Shown here piece by piece: positions 22,154 to 64,000 of a DNA stretch of 64,000 nt (position 1 is the stretch's first letter; every line of letters begins with the position of its first letter). The DNA comes from Candidatus Iainarchaeum sp. (lineage in GTDB: Archaea > Iainarchaeota > Iainarchaeia > Iainarchaeales > VGJJ01), in assembly GCA_043803765.1 (NCBI GenBank), contig JAZDJQ010000012.1:1165-65164 (forward strand), in the 5' to 3' direction. Under the pieces are notes generated by a model. It was not told the origin of the DNA. It saw only the letters and a program-made list of their open reading frames with translations, and ran no database searches. The translations under genes and the position numbers were made by a program.

Positions 22154-22154
22154 C

Positions 22155-32605: not shown

Positions 32606-34921
32606 TCACTCGGTGTTGGTGTCCAAGATGTTGGCATCGGCAACACCTGCGTTCGCATCCACAATAATCGTATCACCTTCCACACTCCCCCCGTCCCGTA
32701 GAAGAATAGCTTTCGGATTAAACCCCCAGATGCGAACCCCCCCAGTATTCGAGTAGAGAGCAGGGAACGTCTCTTCTAAAGTTGGATCATCGAACCATAA
32801 TCGCACGAGCATGGTAGAATTGGATTTCGTCGTGAACACATACAAGCGGCTCATGGCCTTGTCCCGATATAAGTGAAGCGGGGAACCTCCTTGAAGCAGG
32901 GTGGGTTGTCCATTCCAGACGGTAGAAAATGCTTCCATCTGGGCAGGAGTAAAAGTGTTGTCGCCACACTTGTACGAGACTTCCTTCGTGAGGGTTGTCT
33001 CTTCTCTCGAACAGAAAAGCATGGATCCTCCGAATTCCATAATTCGAGGATCATTAGCCATGATCACATTATATGCATAGAATCCAAGATTGGTCTGCTT
33101 GGTCAAAAGGTCATCCCCAAAAATGAGATGGGTCGATCCATACTTTGTCAACAACCCCACAGCCTCATCCATGTTATCCGTAATAAGAAATAGAGCCACG
33201 TCAGCGGATGCTTTCAAATCAGTATTCCGATTGTCGACAATCACTCCCCGCTGAGCCAGAAATGTAATCCAATGCCCCTCATCCCACCAGTTGAAGAATT
33301 TAGCATCCGGGGGGAGATGTTCATCGGACCAAAATAGGGCAGTCTTCCATCCCCAGGAGGACTCGATGTTGGGAGTATTCTCTTCCACAAAAAAGATTCC
33401 GGCCGCCAATCCGAAGAGCAATGAAAAACCAATTGCCGCAATGATAATCTTCTGAGTCCCAACGCTCCGTTTCTCCATGGAACGGTGGGTTAGATGCAAT
33501 ACGACTGCTCCCATGAGAGCGAGAGGCAATCCCCAATAAAACGTGAATTTAAGTTTTCCCCACGCGAGAATGAACGCAATGACAATCCACACGAGCGGGA
33601 TGACCAACTGGTGGTGGGATTGGGGCCGCTTCCATAACAGATAGACGCAGGAGGGAATCCCCAACAAAGCAAAAACGACGAGCATACTATACTTGTTCCC
33701 GAAATAATTGCTCCCCTGACTCTCTTCACCAATAGTGGCTCCCAGCACTCCTCCTCCTGTGAGAGTATAGTTGAATAGTACAACAAAAATAGGGATGAAC
33801 AGCAATAGCAGGATTGACAATACATAGAGTCCATTCACTGCTTTCTGCCACCTATCATCCTTGCGTGAGAACCGCTCGCAAACGGCGAAGAAACCCACGG
33901 CTGCAAGTATTAAGATGATAGTGAAATGCCACGAGAGTTCAATCCCAATGAGGCGCAGTCCCAGATTGGATGCGATTTGGTCCATCCAGAAAGTTCCCGT
34001 TTGTATGGTAGAGATGATCACGAACGGAATGAATGCGGCCAGCCATACGAGACCGAAATGCCTCGCTTCTGCGTGTTCATTGCGTGCGAGGAAAGAGAGA
34101 AACCCCACTGCTCCAATCCCCATGAGAATCGGAACTAATTGATTCGAACCGGGCCAGGACAATACCATCCCCCCAAAACATATTCCTGCGGCCACGCCGA
34201 ATCCGATACGACGCTTCAATTTCGTTTCATTATACGCGGCTTTGACGAAGAAGAACAATCCAAAGACCATCCATAGGAAGCCGAACGAGTCGTCCTCGAA
34301 GAATCCCCCCATCGTGCGATAAACAAAAGCGGGAACAACCGCGGCAAGAATCCCTGCGAATAGTCCCGTCGACCGTTCATATTTTCCATGAAACAATTCC
34401 TTTCCAAGAAAATACATCCCTACACACGCCAATGCTCCATATAATGCAGGGAGAATTTTTACCCACAGAATCCAATTCTCGAGTACATATTTTCCATTGA
34501 GTGTAAAAATCTTGTAAATCGCCGCAGAGACATACCAGAAGAAGGAAGGAGTATTGGTGAGCGTGGCCGCAGCCGCATTCTGGTAATAGGCGAGCGGATC
34601 AAATGCAGGCGCGGGCAACCCTTGGAGGATGTAGGACACCATGCGCGCATGCCAGTATGAGTCAAACTCAAAAAAGAGTTCAAACCGCATCAAGTGGGCG
34701 CGGACAATGAATCCTAAAACGAAAACAAGTCCAACAAACAAACTTTCCTTGGAAAGAATAATGCGTTTCAGACGCTCAACAATTGTATTAGGAGAATGAT
34801 GCGCAGAAGAAGCCGTTTTTTCTTCCATTAGAGGAATTCCCTCAGACGCGTGAGCAGTGAGAGTAGCATGCGCAGCGTGTTCTGCTTCCTGCACGTTTTC
34901 AAGCGAGGGTTCCATAATCAA
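32606..34921 (-). CDS. aglB: Oligosaccharyltransferase AglB/STT3
   Basis: 771 aa. N-terminal 13-TM region, then a soluble C-terminal domain with the WWDxG catalytic motif (WWDEGHW). Confidence 0.75.
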   Translation of the reverse strand: MIMEPSLENVQEAEHAAHATLTAHASEGIPLMEEKTASSAHHSPNTIVERLKRIILSKESLFVGLVFVLGFIVRAHLMRFELFFEFDSYWHARMVSYILQGLPAPAFDPLAYYQNAAAATLTNTPSFFWYVSAAIYKIFTLNGKYVLENWILWVKILPALYGALACVGMYFLGKELFHGKYERSTGLFAGILAAVVPAFVYRTMGGFFEDDSFGFLWMVFGLFFFVKAAYNETKLKRRIGFGVAAGICFGGMVLSWPGSNQLVPILMGIGAVGFLSFLARNEHAEARHFGLVWLAAFIPFVIISTIQTGTFWMDQIASNLGLRLIGIELSWHFTIILILAAVGFFAVCERFSRKDDRWQKAVNGLYVLSILLLLFIPIFVVLFNYTLTGGGVLGATIGEESQGSNYFGNKYSMLVVFALLGIPSCVYLLWKRPQSHHQLVIPLVWIVIAFILAWGKLKFTFYWGLPLALMGAVVLHLTHRSMEKRSVGTQKIIIAAIGFSLLFGLAAGIFFVEENTPNIESSWGWKTALFWSDEHLPPDAKFFNWWDEGHWITFLAQRGVIVDNRNTDLKASADVALFLITDNMDEAVGLLTKYGSTHLIFGDDLLTKQTNLGFYAYNVIMANDPRIMEFGGSMLFCSREETTLTKEVSYKCGDNTFTPAQMEAFSTVWNGQPTLLQGGSPLHLYRDKAMSRLYVFTTKSNSTMLVRLWFDDPTLEETFPALYSNTGGVRIWGFNPKAILLRDGGSVEGDTIIVDANAGVADANILDTNTE

Positions 34922-35248: not shown

Positions 35249-35614
35249 TCATTCGTCGCCGATGGACATAATCTGAAAGCCGTATTTTTCTACCTCTTCC
35301 TTAGACCAAAAATTCTGTTGTTTGGTTTTACTAACCCATGTTATTTTTTTCCTGATAGAGCGGCCAGTGTATTGTTTTGTTTGAGGATTCCATTCTTCTA
35401 AAATAAGAACATCCCCCGGGTTGCACTCAAAATCGGCCAATCGAAGCTCAAACTTTTTTTGACCCAATGTAATCGCATCAAAAAATTGCGGCCAAGTTTT
35501 CTTATGAATTTCTTTGCGTAGCATTTTTTCACCAAGTATTTTTACAAAACAAAAAGGCGATGTGAAACAACTTTTCCCCAGGATTTTTGCAATAAAGCAA
35601 AAAGGCCGAATCAC
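35249..35614 (-). CDS. DUF3850/ASCH-like PUA-fold small protein
   Basis: KTWPQFFDAITLGQKKFELRLADFECNPGDVLILEEWNP...YTGR resembles DUF3850/ASCH domains. The ORF-track start is GTG; the probable real start is the ATG at about 35524 (MLRKEIHKK), giving about 91 aa. Confidence 0.5.
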   Translation of the reverse strand: MIRPFCFIAKILGKSCFTSPFCFVKILGEKMLRKEIHKKTWPQFFDAITLGQKKFELRLADFECNPGDVLILEEWNPQTKQYTGRSIRKKITWVSKTKQQNFWSKEEVEKYGFQIMSIGDE

Positions 35615-36561
35615 AGCAACTCGTCTTCCTCTTCTTTCGCATCGTCTTCTTCATCCTCGTCATCGTCTTCGCCTTTCACTTTCTTTTTTTTCGGCGGGAT
35701 TTTGACGGGGGCTTTGCGGTTTTTTCCTTTGATGGGAGAAAGGTCGATCTCATCTTCCTCTTCTTCGTCTTCATCAGGCAGGGGAAGTTCCTCTTCATTC
35801 TCGTTTTCTTCTGCTTCGTGTACCCGCCCGTGTGTTGGAATATTTTGTTTGACGTGCGTCGGTTTCACCGGCACGACAGGAATTTCTTCTTCATCCTCTT
35901 CGTCTTCTAAATCCTCATCATCTTCTACAACCATGGGAGTGGTTTTCTTTTTTGTTGCACTTCCGCTCGTAAGTCCGCGTACCAAATCATCGGCTGTTTC
36001 AAGTCCGCGAATCATTTCTTTTTCATTTTTTGCTCCAGCGCAAATGACTTTTCCGTTTTTGAAAAGCAACATGGTGAGTTTAGGGTCATCCAATCGTAAG
36101 ATTGCACCCGGAAATTGTTCGGGTTCGTATTCCACATTGTCTAATTGCATGGCGGTGGCAAACAAATCCAAGTTTTGGTGCAAATTTCCTGTTGCCACCA
36201 GATTCACAACATCGTATTCAATCTTTTTCAGAATTTTGACAGTGGGTTGTATTTCATTAATCATTTTGTTTACTTTTTTTATTGCCACATCAATCTGGCT
36301 TTGGGCGCTGGCTCCCGAGCAGATGATTTTTCCGTTTTTGAATAACAGCATGGACACTTTGGGCTCTTTCATTTTGAGAATGGCCCCTGGAAACTGTTCG
36401 GGCTCATACTCAATGTTGGGGATGGACATGGCTAAATTGTACAAGTCTAAGTTGGCGTTCAGTCCACCACTCGCAACCAAGTTCACGATGGCATAGTCAA
36501 TCGTTCTTCCCTTGTGGTCAAAGGAATGTTGTTCAAATACTTGTCCGGAACCCTCACTCAT
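35611..36561 (-). CDS. tbp: TATA-box binding protein with about 110-aa charged C-terminal extension
   Basis: Two TBP repeats (VNLVASGGLNANLDLYNLAM...EYEPEQFPGAILKM / VNLVATGNLHQNLDLFATAM...EYEPEQFPGAILRL) followed by a D/E-rich and K-rich tail (DDEDLEDEEDEEE...KKKKVKGEDDDEDEEDDAKEEEDELL). Confidence 0.85.
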   Translation of the reverse strand: MSEGSGQVFEQHSFDHKGRTIDYAIVNLVASGGLNANLDLYNLAMSIPNIEYEPEQFPGAILKMKEPKVSMLLFKNGKIICSGASAQSQIDVAIKKVNKMINEIQPTVKILKKIEYDVVNLVATGNLHQNLDLFATAMQLDNVEYEPEQFPGAILRLDDPKLTMLLFKNGKVICAGAKNEKEMIRGLETADDLVRGLTSGSATKKKTTPMVVEDDEDLEDEEDEEEIPVVPVKPTHVKQNIPTHGRVHEAEENENEEELPLPDEDEEEEDEIDLSPIKGKNRKAPVKIPPKKKKVKGEDDDEDEEDDAKEEEDELL

Positions 36562-51311: not shown

Positions 51312-52055
51312 TCATTTTTCCCAGTTGGTATCAAATGTTTGTTCCAACGCACGGGCAAGAGGAGTATTTTCTGGCCATATTGCAAAATGATATTCGGGTT
51401 TCTCCTGTTTCATATCCGATAACAGCATCACTACTTTTTTTCCATCCATCACATAGGCGTGCAATCCGTGTTTTGCGTCTTGTAATTCAATGTTGTCTAC
51501 TTTCTGCATTTTTTCCTTGAATTCTTCGGGGTGTTCTCCTGCCAGCCGTATTTTAACATTTCGTGTTGCTGCTTTTTGTAATGCGTGATGAAGCAAGTGA
51601 TGATGCATATCCAGTCGTGTTAGTCCGGTGATGCGCTCGTTTGTTGAATCTATTTCTTGGGCTAGTATTTTGTAAAAGTCGGTTCGTGATTTGACTTTGA
51701 GTATTTTTTCTTCGATGGACGCAGCCTGATTTTCAGGCTGTTTCAATTGGGTTATCCATTCTTTTGCTTCCGTCTGAAGAGTGTCTAATTGGTTTTGCCT
51801 CTCCCCTACCAGTTTGTTGAATGATTCTTGGGGGGACATGGCGCGGTATTTCTTTGGGCGCGTGGCGACTTCAACGGCGAGCCCCTTCTGTATGAGTCCG
51901 CCTAATACATCATACACGCGTGTTTTAGGTACACCTGACTCACTTGCAACGAGCGGAGAGTCTGCTTCTTTTAATCGAAACAATGTACCCATGACTTTGG
52001 CTTCATACTCGGTAAGGCCCATTTTGGTCAAAAAAGATTCTACACGTTGGTTCAT
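51312..52055 (-). CDS. TrmB-family transcriptional regulator
   Basis: N-terminal wHTH ...LGLTEYEAKVMGTLFRLKEADSPLVASESGVPKTRVYDVLGGLIQKGL..., 247 aa. Confidence 0.8.
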   Translation of the reverse strand: MNQRVESFLTKMGLTEYEAKVMGTLFRLKEADSPLVASESGVPKTRVYDVLGGLIQKGLAVEVATRPKKYRAMSPQESFNKLVGERQNQLDTLQTEAKEWITQLKQPENQAASIEEKILKVKSRTDFYKILAQEIDSTNERITGLTRLDMHHHLLHHALQKAATRNVKIRLAGEHPEEFKEKMQKVDNIELQDAKHGLHAYVMDGKKVVMLLSDMKQEKPEYHFAIWPENTPLARALEQTFDTNWEK

Positions 52056-52133
52056 TTTATTACCCGAAGCAGTGAGTTAAGGATGATTTGTTCACTGGGG
52101 TATTTAAACCTGTTTTCACGCTCAACGGAAACC

Positions 52134-52508
52134 CTAATGCGGAGGGTGATGCGTCTCCCCATGCCCCCCTTCCTCTTGTCCAAATCCTAGGAAGTCCCTC
52201 GCACTTGTCACAATAAGTGTTCCCCCTACGAGGGTGAATACGGTTGCTACAAACCATAAGGATGCGAATAAGTCCCCATATTTGAACACCATAAAGTAGA
52301 CTAATATGCCAGTAATGAGTAATGTTAGCGTCCCGTTTCCTTGCATCATTTGGGTTACGAATGAGTAGATGGAAAATATCAATACGACTTTTAACACTAA
52401 ATCCGCTCCTGGAATAAAGGACGTAATAAGGAATGGAATGAGAAGCAAGATGAGGATGACGACTAATACTCCTATAATGAGGTTTCCTTTCTGATTGAGT
52501 ATCGTCAT
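52134..52508 (-). CDS. Small membrane protein with His-rich C-terminal tail (paralog of 52505-53107)
   Basis: Three to four TM helices then ...GQEEGGHGETHHPPH. The segment LVLKVVLIFSIYSFV aligns with LIMKVVGLLFIISFV of the neighbouring gene. The alternative 152-aa ORF in another frame (52060-52518) was rejected. Confidence 0.4.
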   Translation of the reverse strand: MTILNQKGNLIIGVLVVILILLLIPFLITSFIPGADLVLKVVLIFSIYSFVTQMMQGNGTLTLLITGILVYFMVFKYGDLFASLWFVATVFTLVGGTLIVTSARDFLGFGQEEGGHGETHHPPH

Positions 52509-53107
52509 TTTTGATCACCCCTTTTTCCTGCTGTTCTCCTTTGATGGGCTAGTCGTAATGCTCGCTCATATGCGGTGCGTTGTCCCTGCATTTCACGCGG
52601 GGATGGCGTTGAATGTCCTCGTTCATATCCTTGTTCATGTTCATTTCCATACTCGTGTTCTCGCCCTCTTCCATACTCTTGTTCCATTTCTTCATGCGGC
52701 TGCCTTTCTTCGTACTCTTGTTCTCTCCCTTGTTCACGATGTTGTTCATGCTGAGAAGGCATTTCCCTTTTTGCGCTTTTTCGATAGAGCACTCCCCCTA
52801 GGTTAAGAATAGGAGATCGAAATCCTCCGAGGAAGCTGAGATCTACAAGAATGTGAATAATTCCAAACATGGTGAGTAAGTACAAAAACAATGCTCCTCC
52901 AAATATTTTCCAGAAGTCGAATAGCAGGAATGAGGATAATCCGATAATGAGTCCTACCGACAAAATAGGGTGTTGAATGTGGGACCGGACAAAACTGATG
53001 ATGAAAAGCAGTCCTACTACTTTCATGATGAGTTCCAAGTCTCCCAAAATTCCCCCTATTTGGAGGAGCATCATTCCAAACAATAGGCTCATACTCTTTC
53101 TCCCCAA
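52505..53107 (-). CDS. Membrane protein with His/Glu/Gln-rich repetitive C-terminal tail
   Basis: Four TM helices then HEQHREQGREQEYEERQPHEEMEQEYGRGREHEYGNEHEQGYERGH, a quasi-repeat of E-H/Q-E-Y-G/E units. Confidence 0.45.
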   Translation of the reverse strand: MGRKSMSLLFGMMLLQIGGILGDLELIMKVVGLLFIISFVRSHIQHPILSVGLIIGLSSFLLFDFWKIFGGALFLYLLTMFGIIHILVDLSFLGGFRSPILNLGGVLYRKSAKREMPSQHEQHREQGREQEYEERQPHEEMEQEYGRGREHEYGNEHEQGYERGHSTPSPREMQGQRTAYERALRLAHQRRTAGKRGDQK

Positions 53108-53149
53108 CCGTTTAGGGAATTAAAGACCTTCCCTTTTTTTCAACAGATT

Positions 53150-56100
53150 TCATATGCACGTCTGGTTTGGAGTGAGTTTACTCATTATTTGGTCCATGCT
53201 GTTTGCCCCCATTGCCTGATAGAGCGCGTCGTCATTCCAATAAAATAGGGCTTCTACTCCATTATCATATACGCATACATCTCCTTTTGCTACCAAATCA
53301 AACACATCTTGGATGGAATCGACTACCTGACTGGGATTGTTATGTTCAACGGAAGATACTCCGTCTAAGAATTGGGTGGTAGTGAATGTAGGATAGTTGC
53401 TCGTGGCGAATTGGATTCCTTGTTTTTCCGCGCTTAGTGTGAAACTTCCATCTGTAGGAGTGTAAAACAATGTGTGAAGGTACGCGTTTCCACCCGTTGA
53501 GGCATACCCCCAGTCCTGCGCATACACGTATTGCCAATTAGTTAATTGTTCTTCGTTGTTAGCCCTTCTATCTGGTTTTTGATTGAATGCTATTGCACTA
53601 TCCATTCCTTCATAGTCCATGCACCCTTGAACTCCATCCCAATAATTGAGGGTTTCTCCTGTAATGACGGGTTCGCCTCCATCGGACAACGAATAATAAA
53701 CTGAAAATGGTTGGTTGGTTTGGGCGTGGGATACTTTGGCGATTAATGGAGTGGCAATGGATGGGGAAAATGCCATCGTGTAATCCCCCATTCCGGTAGG
53801 GGCGTTCACGTATAGCAGTCTTCCTCTTGTTTCAGGACGAGTATTGAGTTGGGTGATGCCCCTTTCAACCAGCGTGTGCAAAACGAATGAACCGTCTTTT
53901 TGCATATCATCATGCGTCTCCACGAAGCTGTCATTAATCTTAATGAACCCATTTTCGTGCGCATATTCCATCCCGTATCCTTCCCGTTGCATCACTCCAT
54001 TAACCAGTCCTACTTCCCCATCAATAGGAATGCGGTAGAATGGGCTGTTGATGATAGGCGTATCAAGTAAATAGAACTGGATTTTTATCTTGGCTTTTGG
54101 TTTTCCTCCCAAATCAAAGAACTGCCAATCATCCCCTTCTATTTCTACATCCATATCAATCGAATATTTTCCCGGAGTGTGAATATAGGTCTGTTCCCCA
54201 TACTTGTATACAAATTCGAGCGCGTTTTTCTTCTCATAGAACCTCCTATATCCCTTGTGTTCATTCGACCCTACAAACCACGGGGGCGCATCCGCGAATG
54301 ATATTTTGTTGTAATAATTCGCAAAGTCGTCCTTGAAGTCATCCGAGTACCCATCTGCCATAAGGTTGGCCGTGAAGTGAGTAAGCTTGTTGAGCGTTTC
54401 CACGTTTGGAACCGAGGGAGTGAAGATGACGTTCTTTTCGTTCACATATTGTCCGAATTCCTCATCATCTCCATCAATCCATTGATTTAGTGCAGGCTTC
54501 CCTCCTAATAGTTTGGTCGACTTGGGATACTCAGGGCAGTGCCCTATCGTCTTATTGACGTAATTATTCACGTTGACACTAAGGAATTGGACGACAGGGG
54601 ATTGCGTTCCATCGTCGGGTAATCCGAACACATACATGATATCGTATTTTTCGGCTGCAAGATTGGGGATACTGCATACGTATTCAGCCGTTTTCCCTGT
54701 ATCGATTGTTCCCACGGAAGTGCAGGAGAGGTCAATCGGCTTGGGTGCATTCTCATAATCGGTGGATAGGCTCTCCGCGAAAAGGTATATGATCATGTTC
54801 CCGTCGACGGGCATGAGAGTCCTGTTTTCGATGCTCGCAGTAAAAGTAATTTCGTTTGTTTTAGTGATGGAATAACCAATCCCTTTCACTCCTACTTTCT
54901 CATCCTTGATTATTTTGTTTACTTGTTTGAATACGGATTGGGGTTGAGAATTAGGGTTTGTGGGGCAATCAAACGTGTAATTGTTCGCTTCAAGGAATTC
55001 TTCTAATGCACGTAATCTTTTCATCAAGTCGATGTTGAATTGGGTGGCATCGCAGTATATTCCATTGGCGTTTTCTGCATCACAGGCTCCCATCGGAACG
55101 CCGTATTCCTCATCCCATCTCCAATTGTATGCTATTTTGGGTAGTATTTCTTCCCCAGTATTCCCTTGTATCGTTCCAGCGTTGCATGCTTCGGCATTGA
55201 CGTAAGGGAATGGCAGTGTTTGAGTGTGCTCGGCCGTTTTGAATTTGACATGGAATTTTTCTTCTCGTATGGTATCTTCCGTTCCATCACAACTCCCATG
55301 GTCTTCTTCCGGTCCAATCTTGTAGTTCTGGAATTCCCCGTTTACACAACTTACTTTCCCTTCTCCTTTGTGTTCCGCGTCCCCATGAATGTGTTCAGTG
55401 GCGCGCAGTGTAACAACCCCGAAAAGGGGAGTAGTGTTGGCATACCCTTCGATGTTAGTGAATCGCGCCCCTACGCTCTGTATTTCCTTCCCTTCGCCTT
55501 CTTCATCATCTCCATCTTCTTCTGTATCATTGAATATTTCTTGTTCATTGAGAACCCATTTTCCTTTGAAATGGGTGGAAATGTTAGAGGATAATTGGAC
55601 ATTGATCGCATCGGGTGGAAGAACGACTTCTTCTCCTTCCGTGATTCCCTTTAGATGAATAATATAATCATCCATATCCGTCACGGTGAAGAACATCTCG
55701 CACAGGTCCACGTCTTCCGCCATCATCATCGACACCAGTATTGCAACAATGATTCCAATGATGATGCATACCGGGCACCCCAGCATGAATGATAGTATCT
55801 TCGTGAGGATAGGTCCTGCTCCTGTCATCCCTCCAATCGTGCTGCCGAGTGAGGAGAAGGCATACGCTCCAACATTGGCAGCAGTCTGTGTAGCGGCGGT
55901 GGCAGTGGGTGCCAACGCGGCGCTTGCCAATTGGGGAACAATATAGCTGCTGGCTAATTGGGTCGCGGCCGTGGATACGGCGGTTCCGGCGGCCTGTCCC
56001 ACCCAGAATCCTTCATCCGTTTGTTGCGAGGATGTCATCCAGTGGCATACTGCGGCAGTGACGGATACTTTTTCTTTGTATAATCGGTTCAGCACGATCG

Positions 56101-59100
56101 TGGTGTCTTCCGAGTCTTTTCCAAAAAGGACGAATGCGGTCTTGGTCATGTCAAATGCCCTATCTTGAGTTGCTCTCATCTTGACATCCAGTCTTGCAAT
56201 TCGCTCGAATGCGTTCCCCTGAATTCGGGCATGAACCGTTACATCGTATGATCCTGGAAGAGTTGCTTGCGTTCTCTTGATTGTGAATGTATTCGTTTTC
56301 GTGATAACTTGTTTCAGTGGTTGGACTTCGATTGCTCCTTTGGGTGCTCCTCCCGAGCATCCTTCGTTTCCCTGTTCGATGCAGAAAGCGACTTCTACGG
56401 GTGTCTTACATGCGGTTACATCAATGAGGAATGTTGCTTTATTTTCTCCCGAGCGGATGGTGACTCCTTTTCCTGGTTCGGGTGCGATTTTCACGCATGA
56501 TTCAAGCGTATTGACTCCTACTTGTATTGGAATGGTTTTGCTAACGAGGATGGGGGCTTCCGGGTTTCCTATTTCTCCTCCAACCGATAGAGTGAATCCC
56601 CCCGTTTTCCCTGAAAGCGGCTTGTAGGGGATAAACGTAAGCGAAGCATCGTATTCTCCTTTTTCTATTGATAGGAATTGCGAAGCGAGGGGAGTGTATG
56701 CTCCTTTCTGTAGTACTTGGGAATAGGTTTCTTGTGTTTCAGGGTCCTTTATGCTCAATACGAGTTGTCCAAGCGCATTTCCACTCCAATCCACTTTGGC
56801 TTGGATGTGACGCATCTCAACACTATCTCCTCCAACGATACAATCGTGTGAAAGAGTAAATGGAATTGTTCCTTCGTGTTCGAATGGTCTGATTTCGAAT
56901 CTTTCTCCTTCTATTCCATTAAGCACGATTCCCCCATTCTGGCAATCGGACAACGGAGCAAGGTGGATGGTGAGAGGGATATTCGCTAAATATTTTTGAT
57001 TCGTGTAGCTGTTCACCCCTTCCACGAGAATGCTTCCGCTGACTAATTGTGTTTGGTTGATTTTTACCACGGGTTTGGTTTGGGCAAGAATGAAAAACGA
57101 TTCTTTCTTTCCCGGTGCTATTTCCATCCCTTCTTGTTGCTGGATGTTTTCTTTCATTTCTTTTTCATCGAGCCATGCATGGGGTGAAAGTTGGAGTGAC
57201 ATTCCTGAAATAGTGAATGGGCTTCCGGCAATGTTTTGAATGGATAATTCTTTCACTTCCCTTGCATTCCCTACAAGGGGTAAATTAAATATTATTTCAG
57301 CAGGAGTCAACTGAAAAGGAGAAATGATGACGGGCAATACAATACTGGCGTCCGCGTAGTCTTTCTTTTGAAGAATGATAATGTAGTTTTCCCCGGGCCA
57401 TCCTCCCGTGATCGTAGCAGACGCACTTCCGTCGTTAATCGTATTCGTTTGTCCCCATAAAATGGTAGTGCCATCCGTTCCTTTCTGATAGAGGTTGACG
57501 AGCACTCCTTCGATTGGTTTTTCCATTGCATCGTTGACGTAAATCGTGATCGTGGTGGGGGTGAAAGGAAAGATTCCTGTTACACTACTATTCACTTTCA
57601 TTTCTTGCAGGGATTCCACTCCAAGTGCAATGGATGATTCGGCTACTATTTCCTCTTCATCGTACACGCGTAATACAAAATCGGCTATCCCATTCTGTGC
57701 GGCATGGAATGTAACATTTCCAATTATCCATTCCCCCGTGGAAAGGCTTCCTAATGAAATCGTATTGGGTGAAATGGGAATGGTAATTGTATCCATTCCT
57801 TTTTCTTCTATTATTTCTCCATTCGGGGTCTGGAAAAAATAGTTCGTTATCTTAATAGGAAACTCGTCTCCAATTATGTTCCCTGTTAATCGGATGTTTC
57901 CATTGGTTCCTTTTTTTCCCGCTTGAATAATGAATGAATAGGTGTATTCTCTCCCCGCTATTAGAGTGGAATGAGGACCCAATACGACTCCTTCATCCTG
58001 ATCCAATAGTGTTTCTCCTGCGATGCACACAATATCCCCGCAATTCCATTTTTCTCCAAAAAATAGTGTTTGCACATGCGAGTCGGCATAGAATTTGTTT
58101 TTTTCCGATGTGTTTTCGGCTAGTTCAAGCGTTGCATCGGCAGGACTCCGAATAAACAATCCGTCTTCCGTTTCCCCCCATGCACGATAATAGAGAGGAG
58201 TGTTTCCTCCTAAAGAAGCTGAATCATTTACATATAGTTGAACGTCAATCCAATAATCCCCACTCGTATCGCTATTCCACGTCCACTCTCCCCATTTTCC
58301 ATCTCCATTCGTCACATGCGCGGAATCATATTCCCATCCGTTCACTTGGGAATAGGTTGTTCCTTTTTCGGTTTGACCCGTGCTTCCGATTAAATCGTGA
58401 ATGGCAATAGTGTCCGTATCCAATAGTCCATCGTATCCTTCTCGTACGTGGATTCCTATTTTTTTCCATTTTCCTTGTGGAATCGTCACGCGGAATTTCC
58501 CCGTATAGTGTCCTCCCGGTTTCAGCATGGACACGCTTTTTCCCGTTAGGGTATCTCTCCACCCTTCCAATTGTACCTGAACATCACTCCCAATCTCTTC
58601 TTTTCTCAAAAAGGGTTTAATCATTATTTTTTTACCCGGAATTAATGAATAGTTTGTTGTGGTGAGGGAAACATACCCCGGAGCGGACGCTTGGATATAT
58701 ACGTATCGGTCTGCTTTGAACACGTGCGTAGCAATCCCCTTTTCGTCTGCTTGAACGAGGCATGTTTCATCCGGACAATCCACATCAAAAAGAGTGTGAA
58801 ATAACACCGTAGCAAAAGGGATTATTTTTCCAAGGGAATCCACTACTTCTACTTGAACAGTGGATTCTCCTAGCGTGAGCACCACATCCACTTGGGTGGG
58901 TTCTCCTTTTTCTAAGAAAAAGGGCGGTGTTTCCACGTAGCTATAATTTCCCTTCATAACACTTACTGCGTAATTTCCTGTTGGAATTCCTTTCACGCTT
59001 GTTCTTCCCTGCGCGTCCGTTGGAGTAATCGTGATTCCAATGGGTGTTCCCGTTCCGGTAATATCAATGAGTTGAACGATTGCCCCCAAAACGGGCATTC

Positions 59101-60382
59101 CTTTTTCGTCTCGCACCGTAACATTGACTATTCCTGAATTCTCTGAATTGGCTAAAGACAATGAGAAAACGGTTTCAGTTTCTCCTTGTATTGTTGAAAA
59201 AACCTTTTTACTATACACATAGTCGGGGTGCTTCACCACGATGGTTATTCCTTCTCCTGTTGTCAATCCAATAGTAGAAATGATTCCTTCCGAGTTGGTT
59301 TGTTTTTCAGCAATAACAGTATTCGTTTTGGTACTCAACACGATGACGTTGGCTCCTTGAATAGGTTGGTTGGAAAAAGCATCTACTGCTCTAACAACTA
59401 ATGTTCCCTTTATGCTCTTGGACAACACCCATCTTTCCTCATGCACGGTATGCGGGGCTATTTCAATAATAGGACTCGTTCCAACTCCATAATTTCCCGA
59501 TTCATCAAGGAATGAAAAATAATAATCTCCTCCTTCCAAATCAAAAGATACGTATCCTAGCAGATTCGTCTTTTTTTCTCCTGCCAAAACGTGGGTTGAC
59601 GTGAATGCTTGCACGTTCACTCCTGAAAGAGGAGTATTTCCCTCATCTTTTTGTATAATCCATTCTGCTCTTCCGGTTGGAATGCTCTTTTTTTCAAGCG
59701 AAATAACCGTATTCTCTGGAGAAAGCGCTATTTGGGATAGGGGAACATACCCCTCTAATTGAATATTTGCTTTTGGTTTCTCGCATCCAAGTGGTGGAGT
59801 AATGGAAAAAAATCCGTCCGTGATGGACTCGGTTGTAGGAATGAAAGACATTCCATTTTCACACGCGAGATGAATTTCCCCATTTTTTCCCTGAATAATT
59901 TGATGTGATGCATCTACCAAATGAAATGTCCATTCAGGGGGGGCTAATGAAATAGGCATCAATACTATTTTCACCGGCTCATGCGTCCTATTAACTATAA
60001 TTTCTTTTTGCAGTGTTTCCCATTCCTCTCCGCTCAACGTTACAAAAAGATGGGTTCCCGCAGGAACAGACTCAAACAGTACTCTTCCCGTTCCGTCAGT
60101 GGTTAGGGAAAATTCTTCTTTGTTAAACACTCCTTCTACTGTGATTCCGGATATGGGAAACCCGTCGGATGAAACCGCATAGAGTGAAACATTCCCAACA
60201 CTTGAATTGAATAAATAAAAAAAGAGTCCGCCAACAAAAAATAAGAGCAATAATCCAAACACGTACATGCTTGGAACAATCTTATCGATAGGGTCCACTA
60301 TTCGATAAACCGGAATGACGGAGTCAACCGCATCAAGGAAACGATAATACGCGTCCTCTACCCGGTGAAGCCAATTAGGCAT
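53150..60382 (-). CDS. Giant (2410 aa) membrane-anchored surface protein. Layout: N-terminal TM, many CarbopepD_reg/Ig-like beta-sandwich repeats, internal hydrophobic A/G/T-rich segment plus TM, acidic linker, C-terminal module of about 625 aa shared with the downstream paralog
   Basis: N-terminal TM (YVFGLLLLFFVGGLFFYLF). Repeats of the type GTHLFVTLSG..., GANVIVLSTKTN...SEGIIS, GAIVQLIDITG...DAQGRTSVKGIPTGNYAV. Internal segment ...GTAVSTAATQLASSYIVPQLASAALAPTATAATQTAANVGAYAF...ILSFMLGCPVCIIIGIIVAILV. Acidic stretch EEDGDDEEGEGKE. C-terminal module rich in N-x-S/T sequons, ending ...SIQDVFDLVAKGDVCVYDNGVEALFYWNDDA.... Confidence 0.8.
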   Translation of the reverse strand: MPNWLHRVEDAYYRFLDAVDSVIPVYRIVDPIDKIVPSMYVFGLLLLFFVGGLFFYLFNSSVGNVSLYAVSSDGFPISGITVEGVFNKEEFSLTTDGTGRVLFESVPAGTHLFVTLSGEEWETLQKEIIVNRTHEPVKIVLMPISLAPPEWTFHLVDASHQIIQGKNGEIHLACENGMSFIPTTESITDGFFSITPPLGCEKPKANIQLEGYVPLSQIALSPENTVISLEKKSIPTGRAEWIIQKDEGNTPLSGVNVQAFTSTHVLAGEKKTNLLGYVSFDLEGGDYYFSFLDESGNYGVGTSPIIEIAPHTVHEERWVLSKSIKGTLVVRAVDAFSNQPIQGANVIVLSTKTNTVIAEKQTNSEGIISTIGLTTGEGITIVVKHPDYVYSKKVFSTIQGETETVFSLSLANSENSGIVNVTVRDEKGMPVLGAIVQLIDITGTGTPIGITITPTDAQGRTSVKGIPTGNYAVSVMKGNYSYVETPPFFLEKGEPTQVDVVLTLGESTVQVEVVDSLGKIIPFATVLFHTLFDVDCPDETCLVQADEKGIATHVFKADRYVYIQASAPGYVSLTTTNYSLIPGKKIMIKPFLRKEEIGSDVQVQLEGWRDTLTGKSVSMLKPGGHYTGKFRVTIPQGKWKKIGIHVREGYDGLLDTDTIAIHDLIGSTGQTEKGTTYSQVNGWEYDSAHVTNGDGKWGEWTWNSDTSGDYWIDVQLYVNDSASLGGNTPLYYRAWGETEDGLFIRSPADATLELAENTSEKNKFYADSHVQTLFFGEKWNCGDIVCIAGETLLDQDEGVVLGPHSTLIAGREYTYSFIIQAGKKGTNGNIRLTGNIIGDEFPIKITNYFFQTPNGEIIEEKGMDTITIPISPNTISLGSLSTGEWIIGNVTFHAAQNGIADFVLRVYDEEEIVAESSIALGVESLQEMKVNSSVTGIFPFTPTTITIYVNDAMEKPIEGVLVNLYQKGTDGTTILWGQTNTINDGSASATITGGWPGENYIIILQKKDYADASIVLPVIISPFQLTPAEIIFNLPLVGNAREVKELSIQNIAGSPFTISGMSLQLSPHAWLDEKEMKENIQQQEGMEIAPGKKESFFILAQTKPVVKINQTQLVSGSILVEGVNSYTNQKYLANIPLTIHLAPLSDCQNGGIVLNGIEGERFEIRPFEHEGTIPFTLSHDCIVGGDSVEMRHIQAKVDWSGNALGQLVLSIKDPETQETYSQVLQKGAYTPLASQFLSIEKGEYDASLTFIPYKPLSGKTGGFTLSVGGEIGNPEAPILVSKTIPIQVGVNTLESCVKIAPEPGKGVTIRSGENKATFLIDVTACKTPVEVAFCIEQGNEGCSGGAPKGAIEVQPLKQVITKTNTFTIKRTQATLPGSYDVTVHARIQGNAFERIARLDVKMRATQDRAFDMTKTAFVLFGKDSEDTTIVLNRLYKEKVSVTAAVCHWMTSSQQTDEGFWVGQAAGTAVSTAATQLASSYIVPQLASAALAPTATAATQTAANVGAYAFSSLGSTIGGMTGAGPILTKILSFMLGCPVCIIIGIIVAILVSMMMAEDVDLCEMFFTVTDMDDYIIHLKGITEGEEVVLPPDAINVQLSSNISTHFKGKWVLNEQEIFNDTEEDGDDEEGEGKEIQSVGARFTNIEGYANTTPLFGVVTLRATEHIHGDAEHKGEGKVSCVNGEFQNYKIGPEEDHGSCDGTEDTIREEKFHVKFKTAEHTQTLPFPYVNAEACNAGTIQGNTGEEILPKIAYNWRWDEEYGVPMGACDAENANGIYCDATQFNIDLMKRLRALEEFLEANNYTFDCPTNPNSQPQSVFKQVNKIIKDEKVGVKGIGYSITKTNEITFTASIENRTLMPVDGNMIIYLFAESLSTDYENAPKPIDLSCTSVGTIDTGKTAEYVCSIPNLAAEKYDIMYVFGLPDDGTQSPVVQFLSVNVNNYVNKTIGHCPEYPKSTKLLGGKPALNQWIDGDDEEFGQYVNEKNVIFTPSVPNVETLNKLTHFTANLMADGYSDDFKDDFANYYNKISFADAPPWFVGSNEHKGYRRFYEKKNALEFVYKYGEQTYIHTPGKYSIDMDVEIEGDDWQFFDLGGKPKAKIKIQFYLLDTPIINSPFYRIPIDGEVGLVNGVMQREGYGMEYAHENGFIKINDSFVETHDDMQKDGSFVLHTLVERGITQLNTRPETRGRLLYVNAPTGMGDYTMAFSPSIATPLIAKVSHAQTNQPFSVYYSLSDGGEPVITGETLNYWDGVQGCMDYEGMDSAIAFNQKPDRRANNEEQLTNWQYVYAQDWGYASTGGNAYLHTLFYTPTDGSFTLSAEKQGIQFATSNYPTFTTTQFLDGVSSVEHNNPSQVVDSIQDVFDLVAKGDVCVYDNGVEALFYWNDDALYQAMGANSMDQIMSKLTPNQTCI

Positions 60383-60556
60383 TTTCCACTCCCTTCATGG
60401 TTCATCTCGGGGACTTTTCCTTTAAATGAGTCCTCTTAAGAGCAGACATTATGCCCGGTTGGGCGGGCCCAAAATAATCCCATGATAAATACCAGAACGA
60501 CCGCTTCGCTCTCTCAGATTCTTGGAACGAATGGTCTGTGAGGCGCGTGCTGGACC

Positions 60557-61219
60557 TCAATTGCCAGATAATTTACTAATAATATTCCACACATCGTCGC
60601 CCGATGGAAGGGTTACGCCACCACCGGATCCCCCAGAATAGCGGGGACCAGGGTCAGAATAGCTAAACGTACAATGGTCCCTCATAAAAACACTTCCCGT
60701 TATGCTGCAACTCCACATGCCATCATTCCCACTACTCACCGGTTTCGAATCACACAAACTCCAATCAGAGACGCCGTCCTCATCCCCAGGGTCAGAAGAC
60801 ATAGCTGAAGAAGGACACTCATACTCCACTAGACCCTCCTCTTCTTCAACGACAACACTACATGTTCCAGAACAAGAGGGAGTATGGACGAGTCCTATCT
60901 GGTGCCAACAATTAGGAACCCTTTCGCAGATTTCCTCATTTTGCGCCGTTTCGGCATTTTGGGAGACAACACATGCATTGTACTGCGCAGTACAGATAGC
61001 CATGGCAGACGTAAAGGTTGTATGAGCATCGTAACCGGATAAATTTCCTCCCGCGTTACAGGTGGTGTTCGTGGCTTTCGGACAAACACCCGCCGATCCT
61101 CCCCCAGCCAATCCCGATGGCGGAATGGTAGAAGACGTCTGCGCCCATGCAAGGAACAATGCAGCTAAAATAATCATCAATGCAACTGGAAAAAGAGAAC
61201 GGGGATTACGAGAAGGCAT
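60557..61219 (-). CDS. Cys-rich small secreted/membrane-anchored protein (paralog A)
   Basis: N-terminal anchor RSLFPVALMIILAALFLAWA, about 15 Cys, G/S-rich C-terminus with a DDVWN motif, several N-x-S/T sequons. Confidence 0.55.
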   Translation of the reverse strand: MPSRNPRSLFPVALMIILAALFLAWAQTSSTIPPSGLAGGGSAGVCPKATNTTCNAGGNLSGYDAHTTFTSAMAICTAQYNACVVSQNAETAQNEEICERVPNCWHQIGLVHTPSCSGTCSVVVEEEEGLVEYECPSSAMSSDPGDEDGVSDWSLCDSKPVSSGNDGMWSCSITGSVFMRDHCTFSYSDPGPRYSGGSGGGVTLPSGDDVWNIISKLSGN

Positions 61220-61255
61220 ACAATGAAAATCCGGTTCCTTCTATTTAAACACCAC

Positions 61256-62038
61256 CTATTTCCCTTCTTGTTTCTTTTTCTCCTCTTCATTCCACACACT
61301 TATTTCCTCGTCGCCCCAAGGCCCCGCCCCTCCTCCTCCGGGCAACGGACCTTGAGTTGTAGGAGTAGGGGTCGTGGCGCCTGTTACTGGACCTCCCCCT
61401 GTTGAAGGACCGACTCCTCCCCCACTGTCAGACGATGAAATACCGATGCACGTTGGGGGGCCCCAAACTTTAAACCCTTTGACACTGCATCGATAAAAAT
61501 TCATAAAAGCGGGATCCGGAATACCCCCCTGCCAATCTTCATACGTACAGGGTTCGGCACTAGCTTCACCATCCCTAACCGTGAATTCACAATGCTCAAC
61601 AGAGTAGGTGCCGTCATCATTTCTTTTTATCCTGCCACACTCACCAGCACCACCGGGCATATCATTCTTCCCACAATCATACCCAGCAGTTCTTCCTTTG
61701 GTATATTCACAATATGAAACCTTTTCGCAATCCGACTCTTTGCTACTTGGATCTCTTTTGCATTGGTCCATCTTTGATTGGCAATCACTCTTTGCTTTGT
61801 TATAGGCTTCAAGTAGTCCACCATCACTAGCGCTCACCCCTTTTGCAAAACACCACCCTCCTCCTTTCATTTCAGGACATTCAGCCACGGCACCCCCTAC
61901 TGGGAGTCCAGTGGATTGAGTATTTTCAGTACTGTTAACCCAAACGATGAATAGTGCTGCCAGCGCGATCATTATAATGACGGGAAAAAAGGAGCGCTGA
62001 TTGGGGGAAGGCATGAAGGTACGTATTTTTCTCGACAT
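61256..62038 (-). CDS. Cys-rich small secreted/membrane-anchored protein (paralog B)
   Basis: N-terminal anchor RSFFPVIIMIALAALFIVWV, about 16 Cys, G/P/T-rich linker, C-terminal ISVWNEEEKKK. Shares the anchor and the VWN motif with paralog A. Confidence 0.55.
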   Translation of the reverse strand: MSRKIRTFMPSPNQRSFFPVIIMIALAALFIVWVNSTENTQSTGLPVGGAVAECPEMKGGGWCFAKGVSASDGGLLEAYNKAKSDCQSKMDQCKRDPSSKESDCEKVSYCEYTKGRTAGYDCGKNDMPGGAGECGRIKRNDDGTYSVEHCEFTVRDGEASAEPCTYEDWQGGIPDPAFMNFYRCSVKGFKVWGPPTCIGISSSDSGGGVGPSTGGGPVTGATTPTPTTQGPLPGGGGAGPWGDEEISVWNEEEKKKQEGK

Positions 62039-62047
62039 ATTTAATTG

Positions 62048-64000
62048 TTATCCTCCGGGCGGGCCTAAACATGTTTTTCCTGCTTTTAGTTTGTTGGTTT
62101 CAGCGCTGATGCTTGTTTGTCCTGTTTGTTTGTATATTGTTTCAGGGTTCCAGAAGAATCGTGCTTTTGCTCCCGAGTCGCTTATGCAAATCTTTCCATC
62201 CGCTACAAGGTCGAACACGTCTTGGATGGAATCAATAACGGATGAACCATTGTTGTAGGGCATGGTGGTGATTCCGTCCAGTATTTGGGTGGTGGAATAG
62301 GTTGGATCGTTTGCCGTGATGAATTTGGCAGTGGTTGCCTCGGAACTCAATGAGTAGGCTCCATCGGTTGAAGTATACAATATGGTGCGCAAGTAGGCTT
62401 TTCCTCCAACTAATGCTTTCTCCCAATCTACTGCATACAAGTATGGCCAGCTTGTGTATTTGTCCGTGGGTGTTCCTGCTCTGTCCGGGGAATAATTAAA
62501 CTTTTCATAGATGGGCGTTCCCGTGAAATCGTAGCAGTTTCCTGCTCCTTCCCAGAATGTGAGGGTGTTTCCCGTGTCTTGGGGAACTCCATTCTGATTA
62601 ATTTGGTAGTAGGCCGCGAATGGATTGGGTGTTATTTTGTGGTTTACTTGCATCATGATCGGTGTTGCAAGGGATGGAGTGAACACGATAGTCTGGTCAC
62701 CGGCTCCGGATGGTGCGGTTACTTCGAGGATATTTCCTCTCGTGCTGGGGAGACTATTTAGTTTTCGCAGATCGGATGACTTGTCTACGGTAACACTGGC
62801 GAGTGCAGAGCTCCCCATTCCTGAATAGGTTTGGACAAGCGAATCGTTTATTTTCACCAATTCTTGGCTCGTGTTGATGTATTCCACTCCATAACCTACC
62901 CTATCAAATACCGTGTTCTCTACTCCAACGAGTCCATCGAGTGGCATCCGGTAGAACGGAGAATTGGGTGATGGTTCTTCGAGGTGATAGAATTCTGCGA
63001 TGATGGCAGCCGATGGTTTTCCTTCTGCATCGAAGAATTTCCAATCGTCCTTAAATAGGATGGAAAGGTCGATACGATACTTTCCTGCGGCTGGAAGCAG
63101 TGGGTCATTAAAATATTTGTTGGTGAACGCCAAGTAATCCGTTCCATAATATTGGGCGAATCCAACATTCCCAACGGATCCCTTGAACCATACGGGGGCA
63201 TCCGCAAAACTCGTGTTGGAATAATACTCCCTGAAGTCATTCTCGAAGTCCGCCGAGTACCCATCCCGAATGAGGTAGGCATCGAAGTGCATGAGGTTGG
63301 TTAATGCTTGTACGCTGGGAACCTGCGGGGTGAATACTACACTGGTGTCATTTACGTTGCTCCCGTAATTGGGGTCGGATGTGTCGATCCAATAATTGAT
63401 GGCAGGAGTGCCGAAAACCAATATAGTTCCCTTGGGAATATTCTTGCATGTTCCGTTGTTCTGTTCTTCCATGCTGTCCGTGTCGATGGGGACGATGGAT
63501 TGGCTGTAGGTGATGTTAGAAGTGGTGGTGCTGGATAATGCGAATCCTGCCCAATACGTGCTGCTTATTCCGAATCCGGTTACCGGGCACTCTAATCGTT
63601 TACCACTGTTGGCAGGAATGGTGCTGCTGACTACGCAATCATGTGGAATAACATCTCCTTCATTGTTGCTTCCAAATGAAATAGTAATAGTGGCATTCTG
63701 GGAGTTGGTATCGGTATTATTCACGTCCGCGATGAATATAATATTGGTAGAACTGTTCTCTGCGAACCGGTATCCTATTTGAGTGATTCCAATGAATCCT
63801 GGAGGGATACTTCCATTACCCGGGAAGTATAATTCTTTTTCTTGTTTTGCCGGGTCTTCCGGGCAGTCGAATTGGTAATTGTTTGCTTTCAGGAACTCGT
63901 CCAGTGCGTGGAGTCGCTTATTCATCATGATGTTGAATTGGGTAGCATCGCAATAAACATGGTTTGAGTTGCTCGCGTCACACGCATCAATAGGTATTCC
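62048..64000 (-). CDS. Second giant surface protein paralog, 3' (C-terminal) portion only. The gene continues beyond the window end
   Basis: The C-terminal module of about 625 aa is collinear with that of 53150-60382 (FDCP...DGYS[AD]DF[EK][ND]DF..Y[YS]N.SFADAP.WF...SIQDVFDLVA.G..C). The frame stays open upstream of the track's Met through position 64000 (GIPIDACDASNSNHVYCDATQFNI-MMNKRL...), matching GVPMGACDAENANGIYCDATQFNI-DLMKRL in the first paralog. Confidence 0.75.
   Translation of the reverse strand, partial: GIPIDACDASNSNHVYCDATQFNIMMNKRLHALDEFLKANNYQFDCPEDPAKQEKELYFPGNGSIPPGFIGITQIGYRFAENSSTNIIFIADVNNTDTNSQNATITISFGSNNEGDVIPHDCVVSSTIPANSGKRLECPVTGFGISSTYWAGFALSSTTTSNITYSQSIVPIDTDSMEEQNNGTCKNIPKGTILVFGTPAINYWIDTSDPNYGSNVNDTSVVFTPQVPSVQALTNLMHFDAYLIRDGYSADFENDFREYYSNTSFADAPVWFKGSVGNVGFAQYYGTDYLAFTNKYFNDPLLPAAGKYRIDLSILFKDDWKFFDAEGKPSAAIIAEFYHLEEPSPNSPFYRMPLDGLVGVENTVFDRVGYGVEYINTSQELVKINDSLVQTYSGMGSSALASVTVDKSSDLRKLNSLPSTRGNILEVTAPSGAGDQTIVFTPSLATPIMMQVNHKITPNPFAAYYQINQNGVPQDTGNTLTFWEGAGNCYDFTGTPIYEKFNYSPDRAGTPTDKYTSWPYLYAVDWEKALVGGKAYLRTILYTSTDGAYSLSSEATTAKFITANDPTYSTTQILDGITTMPYNNGSSVIDSIQDVFDLVADGKICISDSGAKARFFWNPETIYKQTGQTSISAETNKLKAGKTCLGPPGG

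Follow-up and report, generated by a model that had tools for sequence, protein, structure and literature searches.

The adhesion pilins PilA1 to PilA6 of Haloferax volcanii, which are archaeal type IV pilins, are six paralogous small exported proteins whose hydrophobic domain, the H-domain, is nearly invariant and far better conserved than the remainder, and whose short charged leader ends in R-[A/S] directly before this domain (PMC4371748). Cleavage before the H-domain is the defining feature of such processing; prepilin sites, among which R-A|V-S is listed, need G, A or S at position -1, and a charged residue at -2 is critical for some prepilin peptidases only (PMC4371748). Here we describe two adjacent genes, A and B, which encode small cysteine-rich proteins that resemble these pilins: they are paralogous and predicted to be exported, and a far better conserved hydrophobic domain directly follows a short charged leader ending in R-S. 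Both lie in a stretch of 64,000 nucleotides (nt) from Candidatus Iainarchaeum sp. (NCBI GenBank assembly GCA_043803765.1, contig JAZDJQ010000012.1, positions 1,165 to 65,164 of the forward strand), which is called the window below and is numbered from its first letter.

Other described systems are similar in part. Proteins of the LPP20 type, represented by HP1454 and Lpp20 (HP1456) of Helicobacter pylori and by phage proteins, are the top structural matches, at low scores, of a single model of one relative of A and B. Archaeal C-terminal sorting signals (PGF-CTERM/archaeosortase A and relatives) need a signature motif, which precedes a transmembrane helix and a basic tail at the C-terminus. 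Proteins of this class have in common with A and B a Ser/Thr/Pro/Gly-rich linker near the C-terminus and the origin from an N-glycosylating archaeon (AglB is encoded in the window), but their C-termini are hydrophilic. No hydrophobic segment is present in the last 45 residues of either protein, which end in VWNIISKLSGN and VWNEEEKKKQEGK; an anchor of the PGF-CTERM/archaeosortase type is therefore excluded. Finally, small lineage-specific secreted Cys-rich proteins in general have a signal or anchor and an even number of Cys whose spacing is conserved, diverge rapidly, are duplicated locally in tandem and are patchily distributed, all of which applies to A and B. Unlike these, A and B come from a DPANN archaeon, have an unusually conserved N-terminal domain and show no sequence link or confident fold link to described families.

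Hardly any surface protein has been characterised in DPANN archaea, which are believed to live in attachment to hosts. With A and B, a small family would be added that is very rare and whose exported, disulfide-rich members have an N-terminal hydrophobic domain under unusual constraint. This domain could inform how DPANN cells tether or sort surface proteins. What is new is a sparse sequence family; its architecture is commonplace, and nothing points to a new mechanism.

Two tandem paralogues with a constrained N-terminal block

The original prediction placed two paralogous Cys-rich proteins at 60557-62038. Two open reading frames (ORFs) on the same strand are indeed present there:

61256 to 62014, minus strand: gene B, 252 amino acids (aa), NCBI V1776_02925, the NCBI protein being identical to this reading; leader MPSPNQRS, hydrophobic domain of 18 aa, S/T/G linker, 12-Cys domain, long G/S/P/T tail, VWN and an acidic/basic end
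60557 to 61219, minus strand: gene A, 220 aa, NCBI V1776_02920; layout as in B with a shorter tail
61937 to 61990, minus strand: hydrophobic domain of B, residues 9-26, FFPVIIMIALAALFIVWV, 18 aa following R7-S8, mean Kyte-Doolittle hydropathy 2.86
61142 to 61195, minus strand: hydrophobic domain of A, residues 9-26, LFPVALMIILAALFLAWA, mean Kyte-Doolittle hydropathy 2.57
62037 to 62044, minus strand: TATA-like box of B, TTAAATAT, which begins 30 nt before the ATG of B; a consensus match with putative function
61242 to 61249, minus strand: TATA-like box of A, TTTAAATA, which begins 30 nt before the ATG of A; a consensus match with putative function

In a word-indexed search, both products are found as hypothetical proteins only, from a metagenome-assembled genome (MAG) of Candidatus Diapherotrites (Iainarchaeia, DPANN), on a contig of 173 kb.

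A and B are related with an E value of 8e-16 in BLASTP and 28% identity over the first approximately 140 residues, and we consider them with high confidence to be tandem paralogues. The similarity is distributed very unevenly. In the N-terminal block 17 of 27 residues are identical (63%), compared to 22% in the linker, 26% in the Cys core and 22% in residues 136-195; the low-complexity tail reaches 52% (11/21). Both proteins contain R-S-[LF]-F-P-V-x2-M-I-x-L-A-A-L-F-x2-W and [ST]-G-L-[AP]-x-G-G, and the conservation of the N-terminus beyond the need of a generic signal peptide, as proposed from these motifs, is borne out. At synonymous positions the N-terminal block is as diverged as the rest of the gene: different codons are used at 9 of its 14 identical degenerate residues and at 28 of 47 in the remainder. 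This equal synonymous divergence shows that the N-terminal conservation is due to purifying selection on the peptide and not to recent gene conversion.

The start codon of B had to be revised. As listed, its ORF comprises 61256-62038 (260 aa) and opens with an alternative ATG further upstream, at 62038. The Met encoded by the ATG at 62014 is where the similarity to A sets in, NCBI also calls the protein of 252 aa, and a TATA-like box is located 30 nt upstream of this ATG, which is therefore most likely the start of B; the box TTAAATAT partly overlaps the alternative ATG. An upstream scan found the spacing of the TATA-like octamers to be identical in A and B, namely 30 nt before the ATG that opens the shared MPS..N.RS. 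Archaeal TATA boxes are centred approximately at -26/-27 from the transcription start. Given this geometry, the boxes suggest that A and B are read from two separate transcripts, which would be leaderless or nearly so. The order of transcription is giant1, B, A, giant2, where giant1 and giant2 denote two very large genes, and all four are encoded on the minus strand with gaps of 33 nt between giant1 and B (from ATG 62014), 36 nt between B and A and 174 nt between A and giant2.

A rare family with a common cysteine framework

The part of the proteins that follows the linker, and the motif in the tail, are defined by these features:

61448 to 61879, minus strand: Cys-rich domain of B, residues 46-189, 12 Cys, delimited by Cys positions and spacings
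60671 to 61084, minus strand: Cys-rich domain of A, residues 46-183, 12 Cys, delimited in the same way
61289 to 61297, minus strand: V240-W241-N242 of B
60584 to 60592, minus strand: V210-W211-N212 of A

Instead of the 15 to 16 Cys per protein initially reported, A and B contain 12 each. They follow each other at distances of 7, 21, 6, 14, 5, 11, 3, 14, 20, 14 and 11 in A and of 8, 22, 6, 10, 5, 11, 11, 15, 13, 19 and 12 in B, that is, in the same order and with similar spacings. A and B as well as their homologues have no family match in Pfam, NCBIfam, PHROGs or PADLOC, and a profile search of the PDB sequences with the A/B family was likewise negative, in agreement with the original prediction, in which no known family had been recognised by eye.

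To find relatives, a profile made of A and B only was run with HMMER, exhaustively, against 1.84 billion cluster representatives (E<=1e-3). Four proteins were returned, namely A, B, P0003 and P0004, the last with an E value of 2.6e-6. P0003 (4447 aa) was rejected as spurious: its Ig-like repeats, of the kind found in adhesins of gliding bacteria, align in 13 stretches with query residues 111-166 only, and the score is inflated by the repeats. P0004 stems from assemblies of 0.1-um-filtered Hainich groundwater and from the MAG GCA_964363635.1. The Hainich locus carries three adjacent members of the family, H1 (146 aa), H2 (171 aa) and H3 (150 aa with an upstream ATG), which the profile built from A and B detects among 832 ORFs with E values of 9.5e-15, 5e-5 and 2e-4, respectively; in pairwise BLASTP comparisons with A the values are 7.5e-14, 2.8e-8 and 8.6e-7. 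Word-indexed homologue searches with profiles of two, three and five sequences yielded nothing beyond the proteins of the window and of Hainich. Pattern scans of JGI metagenome contigs with the N-terminal motifs and with core C-x3-YN-x-C motifs, and a pattern scan of viral contigs, did not reveal any relatives either. With high confidence, the A/B family is thus very small, very rare and unnamed, and has so far been seen only in ultra-small groundwater organisms.

The five members share the framework C-P-x6/7-C-x20-22-C-x6-C-x10-14-C-x5-C-x10/11-C, and the first eight Cys of A are spaced as in H1 and H3, which themselves, like H2, have ten Cys. This recurrence in another genome supports the earlier proposal of a disulfide-knotted domain, and the exported Cys-rich domain is probably disulfide-bonded. 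The remaining parts of the proteins are less constant, and the family alignment does not contain any conserved stretch of 7-10 columns. H1-H3 lack the G/S/P/T tail, VWN and RS[LF]FPV. The original prediction had staked its view of the termini on the conservation of the motifs in other genomes, and the outcome goes largely against it: only H3 retains part of the hydrophobic-domain pattern in register, as F-x4-M-x2-L-x2-L-F-x2-W-A. The hydrophobic domain is separated from the first Cys by a linker of about 17-20 S/T/P/G-rich residues in A, B and H3 (about 17 aa, rich in Gly/Pro/Thr, in H3), and by about 8-10 aa in H1 and H2, whose signal peptides are short and ordinary and carry AxA-like sites.

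The tails of A and B are indeed rich in G, S, P and T (fractions of 0.47 and 0.51, respectively, in the last 45 aa) and both contain VWN, preceded in the form G-D-[DE]-(0-3 aa)-V-W-N. The proposed consensus [DE]-x-[VS]-V-W-N fits B (E-I-S-V-W-N) and does not fit A (G-D-D-V-W-N). Moreover, the similarity between the tails is marginal: when the sequences were shuffled with their composition preserved, the observed score was reached in 22 cases out of 1000. When all ORFs of the window and of 75 further loci, described below, were scanned with regular expressions, VWN, RSxFPV-like and LAALF..W motifs occurred in A and B as the only real ORFs; the remaining matches were short shadow ORFs or unrelated contexts within giants. 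N-glycosylation sequons are present at N51 and N59 of A and at N27 of B. Since the window also encodes AglB/STT3 and a large glycan-synthesis island, glycosylation of A and B is plausible.

TATA-like boxes are located about 30-45 nt upstream of H1-H3, which suggests that the Hainich host of the family is an archaeon. The Hainich contig (loci L076, L001 and L002) also encodes a bacterial-type triosephosphate isomerase, MsrA, a type 2 isopentenyl diphosphate isomerase and many ORFs without family; no tRNA and no informative matches to Iainarchaeal loci were found on it.

Predicted export, proposed anchoring and alternative roles

Taken as a whole, the reading that we prefer, and hold to be somewhat on the likely side, is that A and B are independently transcribed, Sec-exported and disulfide-stabilised surface proteins with a retained N-terminal tether, which arrived as a local insertion between the giants. 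Each gene would be transcribed from its own TATA-box promoter into a leaderless or nearly leaderless mRNA. The positively charged leader and the 18-residue hydrophobic domain would direct the protein to Sec export, and a flexible stalk of S/T/P/G would carry, outside the cell, an ectodomain of about 140 residues with up to six disulfides. The hydrophobic domain would most likely be kept as a membrane tether (signal-anchor) and not be discarded, while the G/S/P/T tail would serve as a low-complexity spacer, possibly glycosylated and specific to this genome. The pair would have been inserted between conserved tandem giants, duplicated then or before, and would not be ancestral to the giant cluster. 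Of these elements, we hold export and disulfides with moderate confidence, and the retention of the hydrophobic domain as an anchor with low confidence.

The N-terminus of A and B can be read as a retained signal-anchor, a cleaved Sec signal or a class III signal. All three fit the sequence; the first is favoured and the other two are live rivals. An anchor is preferred over a cleaved signal on several grounds. The hydrophobic run is uninterrupted for 18 aa, which is long for the h-region of a cleaved signal, and V-W-V|N of B, at the position where A has a possible signal peptidase I site, makes a poor one. Furthermore, the N-terminal block is under stronger constraint than the ectodomain, and A, B and H3 have a stalk-like linker, rich in Pro/Gly/Ser in A and B. 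Retention as a tether would explain why the hydrophobic domain is the best-conserved part of A and B.

Several points weigh against this reading. That the proteins are exported, form disulfides and keep the anchor is in each case deduced from sequence. A carries a textbook site, A24-W-A26|Q, and H1-H3 have AxA-like sites, so that the hydrophobic domain could be cleaved off. The known family consists of five sequences from two organisms and thus gives little power to arguments from conservation, and more divergent members may exist, as the exhaustive search used the profile of A and B alone. The physical adjacency of A and B to the giants could represent a newly acquired functional link. Structure prediction does not establish the fold: AlphaFold gave an unusable model of A from an alignment of four sequences (mean predicted local distance difference test score, pLDDT, of 36), and for P0004 only one of five models was confident (mean 74, with core residues 33-125 at 70-96), the other four being at about 40.

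The confident model of P0004 consists of a strand (41-49), a helix (52-85) and three further strands, i.e. a beta-alpha-beta-beta-beta core, and LPP20 proteins are its top Foldseek matches in two libraries (from this single model, with template modelling (TM) scores of 0.30-0.36). In the PDB none of the matches was significant; the best was HP1454 (4kzs; E 0.013, prob 0.99, TM 0.30), with Lpp20 lower. Among viral models (BFVD), the best match was the 'LPP20 lipoprotein' A0A6J5L6X5 (E 5.7e-4, prob 1.0, TM 0.36). Unlike LPP20 proteins, A and B have no lipobox Cys after the hydrophobic domain, none of the five family members matches Pfam LPP20, and the disulfide framework of the family has no counterpart there. 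An LPP20-like alpha/beta fold of the family is thus a weak, model-based lead and not a classification.

The alternative with a cleaved Sec signal is that A and B are freely secreted, small disulfide-rich effectors (such as toxins, antimicrobials, inhibitors or adhesins) that are processed by signal peptidase I and act on a host or competitor, the N-terminal conservation being incidental to efficient export. Signal peptidase I sites follow the (-3,-1) rule, and small residues are found at these positions in A (AWA|Q) and at the candidate sites VSA|F, SVA|M and SWA|G of H1-H3, respectively. In addition, the shorter homologues comprise only a signal peptide and a 10-Cys domain, and the patchy, fast-diverging and locally duplicated family is typical of effector-like genes. 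However, cleaved signal peptides normally evolve fastest, and here the N-terminus is the slowest part; B has no good cleavage site, and no match to a toxin, inhibitor or defence family was obtained. We consider this explanation unlikely.

Still less probable, in our estimate, is a relation of A and B to type IV pilins, in which a class III signal would be cut after R7-S8 by a prepilin peptidase of the PibD/FlaK type. The hydrophobic domain would then provide the N-terminal core helix, either in a filament or in a pilin-like assembly associated with the membrane. In both proteins a short leader with R7 at -2 and S8 at -1 is followed at once by the hydrophobic domain, beginning with L9/F9, and the strongest selection falls on the N-terminal block. 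The residues at -1 and -2 agree with those described for prepilin sites (PMC4371748), but the same stretch also fits an ordinary Sec signal and hence does not discriminate. Against pilins, no archaeal pilin or archaellin N-terminal family was matched in Pfam (full proteins and isolated 48-aa N-termini, E<=10) or in NCBIfam. The Pro/Gly/Ser-rich linker and the Cys-rich globular part have no equivalent in PilA1-PilA6, and the linker would break the continuous alpha-1 helix of a pilin. The N-terminal motif is not kept in H1 and H2, which lack a [KR][GAS] site; in H3 this site is displaced. Among about 50 genes of the window searched with Pfam (all but four ORFs in 20969-24393), there is no pilus ATPase, platform protein or prepilin peptidase, and pilins are absent from the 50 best PDB matches that Foldseek gave for the beta-alpha-beta-beta-beta model of P0004.

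The surrounding giant genes and the origin of the pair

The giants that enclose A and B, and a short repeat at the border of the pair, are as follows:

62048 to 64000, minus strand: 3' part of giant1, frame open to the window end, stop codon at 62048; the product ends ...KAGKTCLGPPGG
53150 to 60382, minus strand: giant2, 2410 aa, with CarboxypepD_reg and Big_1 domains
60449 to 60473, minus strand: possible insertion scar, TTTGGGCCCGCCC, which repeats the last codons of giant1, TTTAGGCCCGCCC at 62057-62069

Giant1 and giant2 are paralogous, with 42% identity over the C-terminal approximately 650 aa. With the alignment of this region as the query, 171 stretches of GTDB species representatives were found to encode relatives of the C-terminal domain, and 70 loci, almost all from Iainarchaeia/Diapherotrites, were retained. 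A hidden Markov model of the A/B family was then run over 75 loci with 13,088 ORFs in total, including the 70 that surround giant homologues, and found no member except the Hainich copies. In the closest relatives (L006 and L007, 70% identity) giant1 ends ...CLGPPGGN and giant2 starts about 50 nt later, with 53 nt between the coding sequences or 43 in the scan of ORF boundaries. Giant1 is directly followed by giant2 in L007, L008, L010, L011, L016 and L020. The 23 loci inspected show either two successive giants (18-43 nt apart if directly adjacent) or a giant followed by a polytopic membrane protein of about 195 aa, a membrane protein of about 120 aa and TrmB; none has a small Cys-rich gene between the genes of the cluster. 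Downstream of giant2 the window has the same order (52505-53107, 52134-52508 and 51312-52055). The Hainich trio, in turn, has no giant within 9-10 kb on either side, the longest gene there coding for <= 356 aa. The absence of the family from the 70 giant loci, the adjacency of giant1 and giant2 in relatives and the Hainich members without giants together argue, with high confidence, that A and B represent a lineage-specific insertion between two conserved giant genes.

A trace of this event may be preserved. A direct repeat of 13 nt, identical at 12 of 13 positions, is found at both junctions of the A/B cassette (60461-60473 and 62057-62069), the downstream copy lying 83 nt downstream of A. 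The last 12 nt of this copy open the in-frame stretch TTG GGC CCG CCC AAC CGG GCA TAA, which encodes LGPPNRA and a stop, compared to the C-terminus LGPPGG of giant1, and the ATG of giant2 follows 66 nt after the stop, much like the junction of giant1 and giant2 in relatives. The chance of such a junction-specific repeat was roughly estimated at p ~0.01, which is moderate support. The downstream copy could be a scar left by the insertion, or what remains of the former end of giant1, but this is suggestive only.

The location invites the idea, put forward in the original prediction, that the termini of A and B are sorting or docking signals related to the giants. On this view A and B serve the giants as dedicated docking or accessory subunits which, by the N-terminal helix and/or the VWN peptide, would bind them and decorate or cap their surface structure. 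The position of A and B is precisely between the two giants, whose strand they share, with the short gaps given above, and F-[FY]-W-N is conserved near the C-termini of the giants, to which the tail of B can be aligned as W-N-x-E-x3-K-Q-x-G. This alignment is not significant, with 31 of 1000 shuffles reaching the score in one of four comparisons, and A shows nothing comparable; a correspondence of the B tail with the FFWN-like region of the giants was dropped accordingly. Judged from the 70 giant loci and the Hainich locus, the family does not co-occur with giants in either direction, so the question of whether homologues always neighbour giant genes is answered in the negative; each of A and B is preceded by its own promoter-like element, the tail motif is missing from all homologues, and the C-termini carry no hydrophobic segment. 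We regard a docking role as improbable, below both alternatives for the N-terminus. Less probable still is a combination in which the A/B/H3 subtype would be a new archaeal surface module, with a retained, sequence-specific N-terminal helix, uncleaved or processed as in class III signals, for assembly or partner recognition in the membrane. In this genome the newly acquired G/S/P/T tail with VWN would plug into the conserved C-terminal domain of the flanking giants, and A and B would be freshly recruited adaptors of the DPANN cell surface for host contact.

Our preferred reading of A and B as tethered surface proteins thus does not involve the giants. As A and B appear to be a lineage-specific insertion that has no conserved link to the giants and no recognisable mechanism, the practical value of the result is limited and consists in a corrected record: 12 Cys per protein, the start codon of B and no evidence for docking. 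The neighbouring giant cluster is conserved and more widespread and is arguably a better subject than A and B.

This conserved cluster of Iainarchaeia comprises one or two tandem giants (~2000-2700 aa), the membrane proteins of about 195 and 120 aa and a TrmB-family regulator (window 51312-64000; L007 4790-17943). The C-terminal domain of approximately 650 aa has no Pfam or PDB match and contains eight Cys that are invariant between the two paralogues of the window. In giant2, two strong hydrophobic segments are present at about residues 35-60, at the N-terminus, and about 1524-1555, the latter after an Ala/Thr-rich stretch. The part rich in Ig-like and CarboxypepD_reg domains and the conserved C-terminal domain would thereby be placed on opposite sides of the membrane, unless there is a further membrane pass.

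The window has an archaeal context, with archaeal GluRS, TrmB, TBP, FtsZ, the ribosomal proteins L11/L1/L10, AglB/STT3 and a glycan-biosynthesis island of about 35 kb. This island (1-35000) encodes many GT1/GT2/GT4 glycosyltransferases, five paralogous epimerases/dehydratases of nucleoside-diphosphate sugars, methyltransferases and AglB/STT3 (32606-34921), as well as three B12-binding radical SAM enzymes and one SPASM radical SAM enzyme; 17643-19121, 27497-28222 and 28227-29552 have no Pfam match. Archaeal TBP usually has about 180-200 aa; the TBP ORF of the window (35611-36561) has 316 aa with two TBP repeats, and its 3' end encodes a long acidic stretch. An ORF of 802 aa at 45687-48095 matches the proteolytic domain Lon_C only, close to its N-terminus (residues 104-224), with no AAA+ domain detected, and is thus an atypical Lon-like protein. 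Downstream of giant2, a GTG ORF of 152 aa (52060-52518) and an ATG ORF of 124 aa (52134-52508, beginning MTILNQKGNLIIGVL) overlap on the minus strand in different frames. The former is probably spurious, as the ORF of 124 aa is the one that is conserved downstream of giants in other Iainarchaeal loci.

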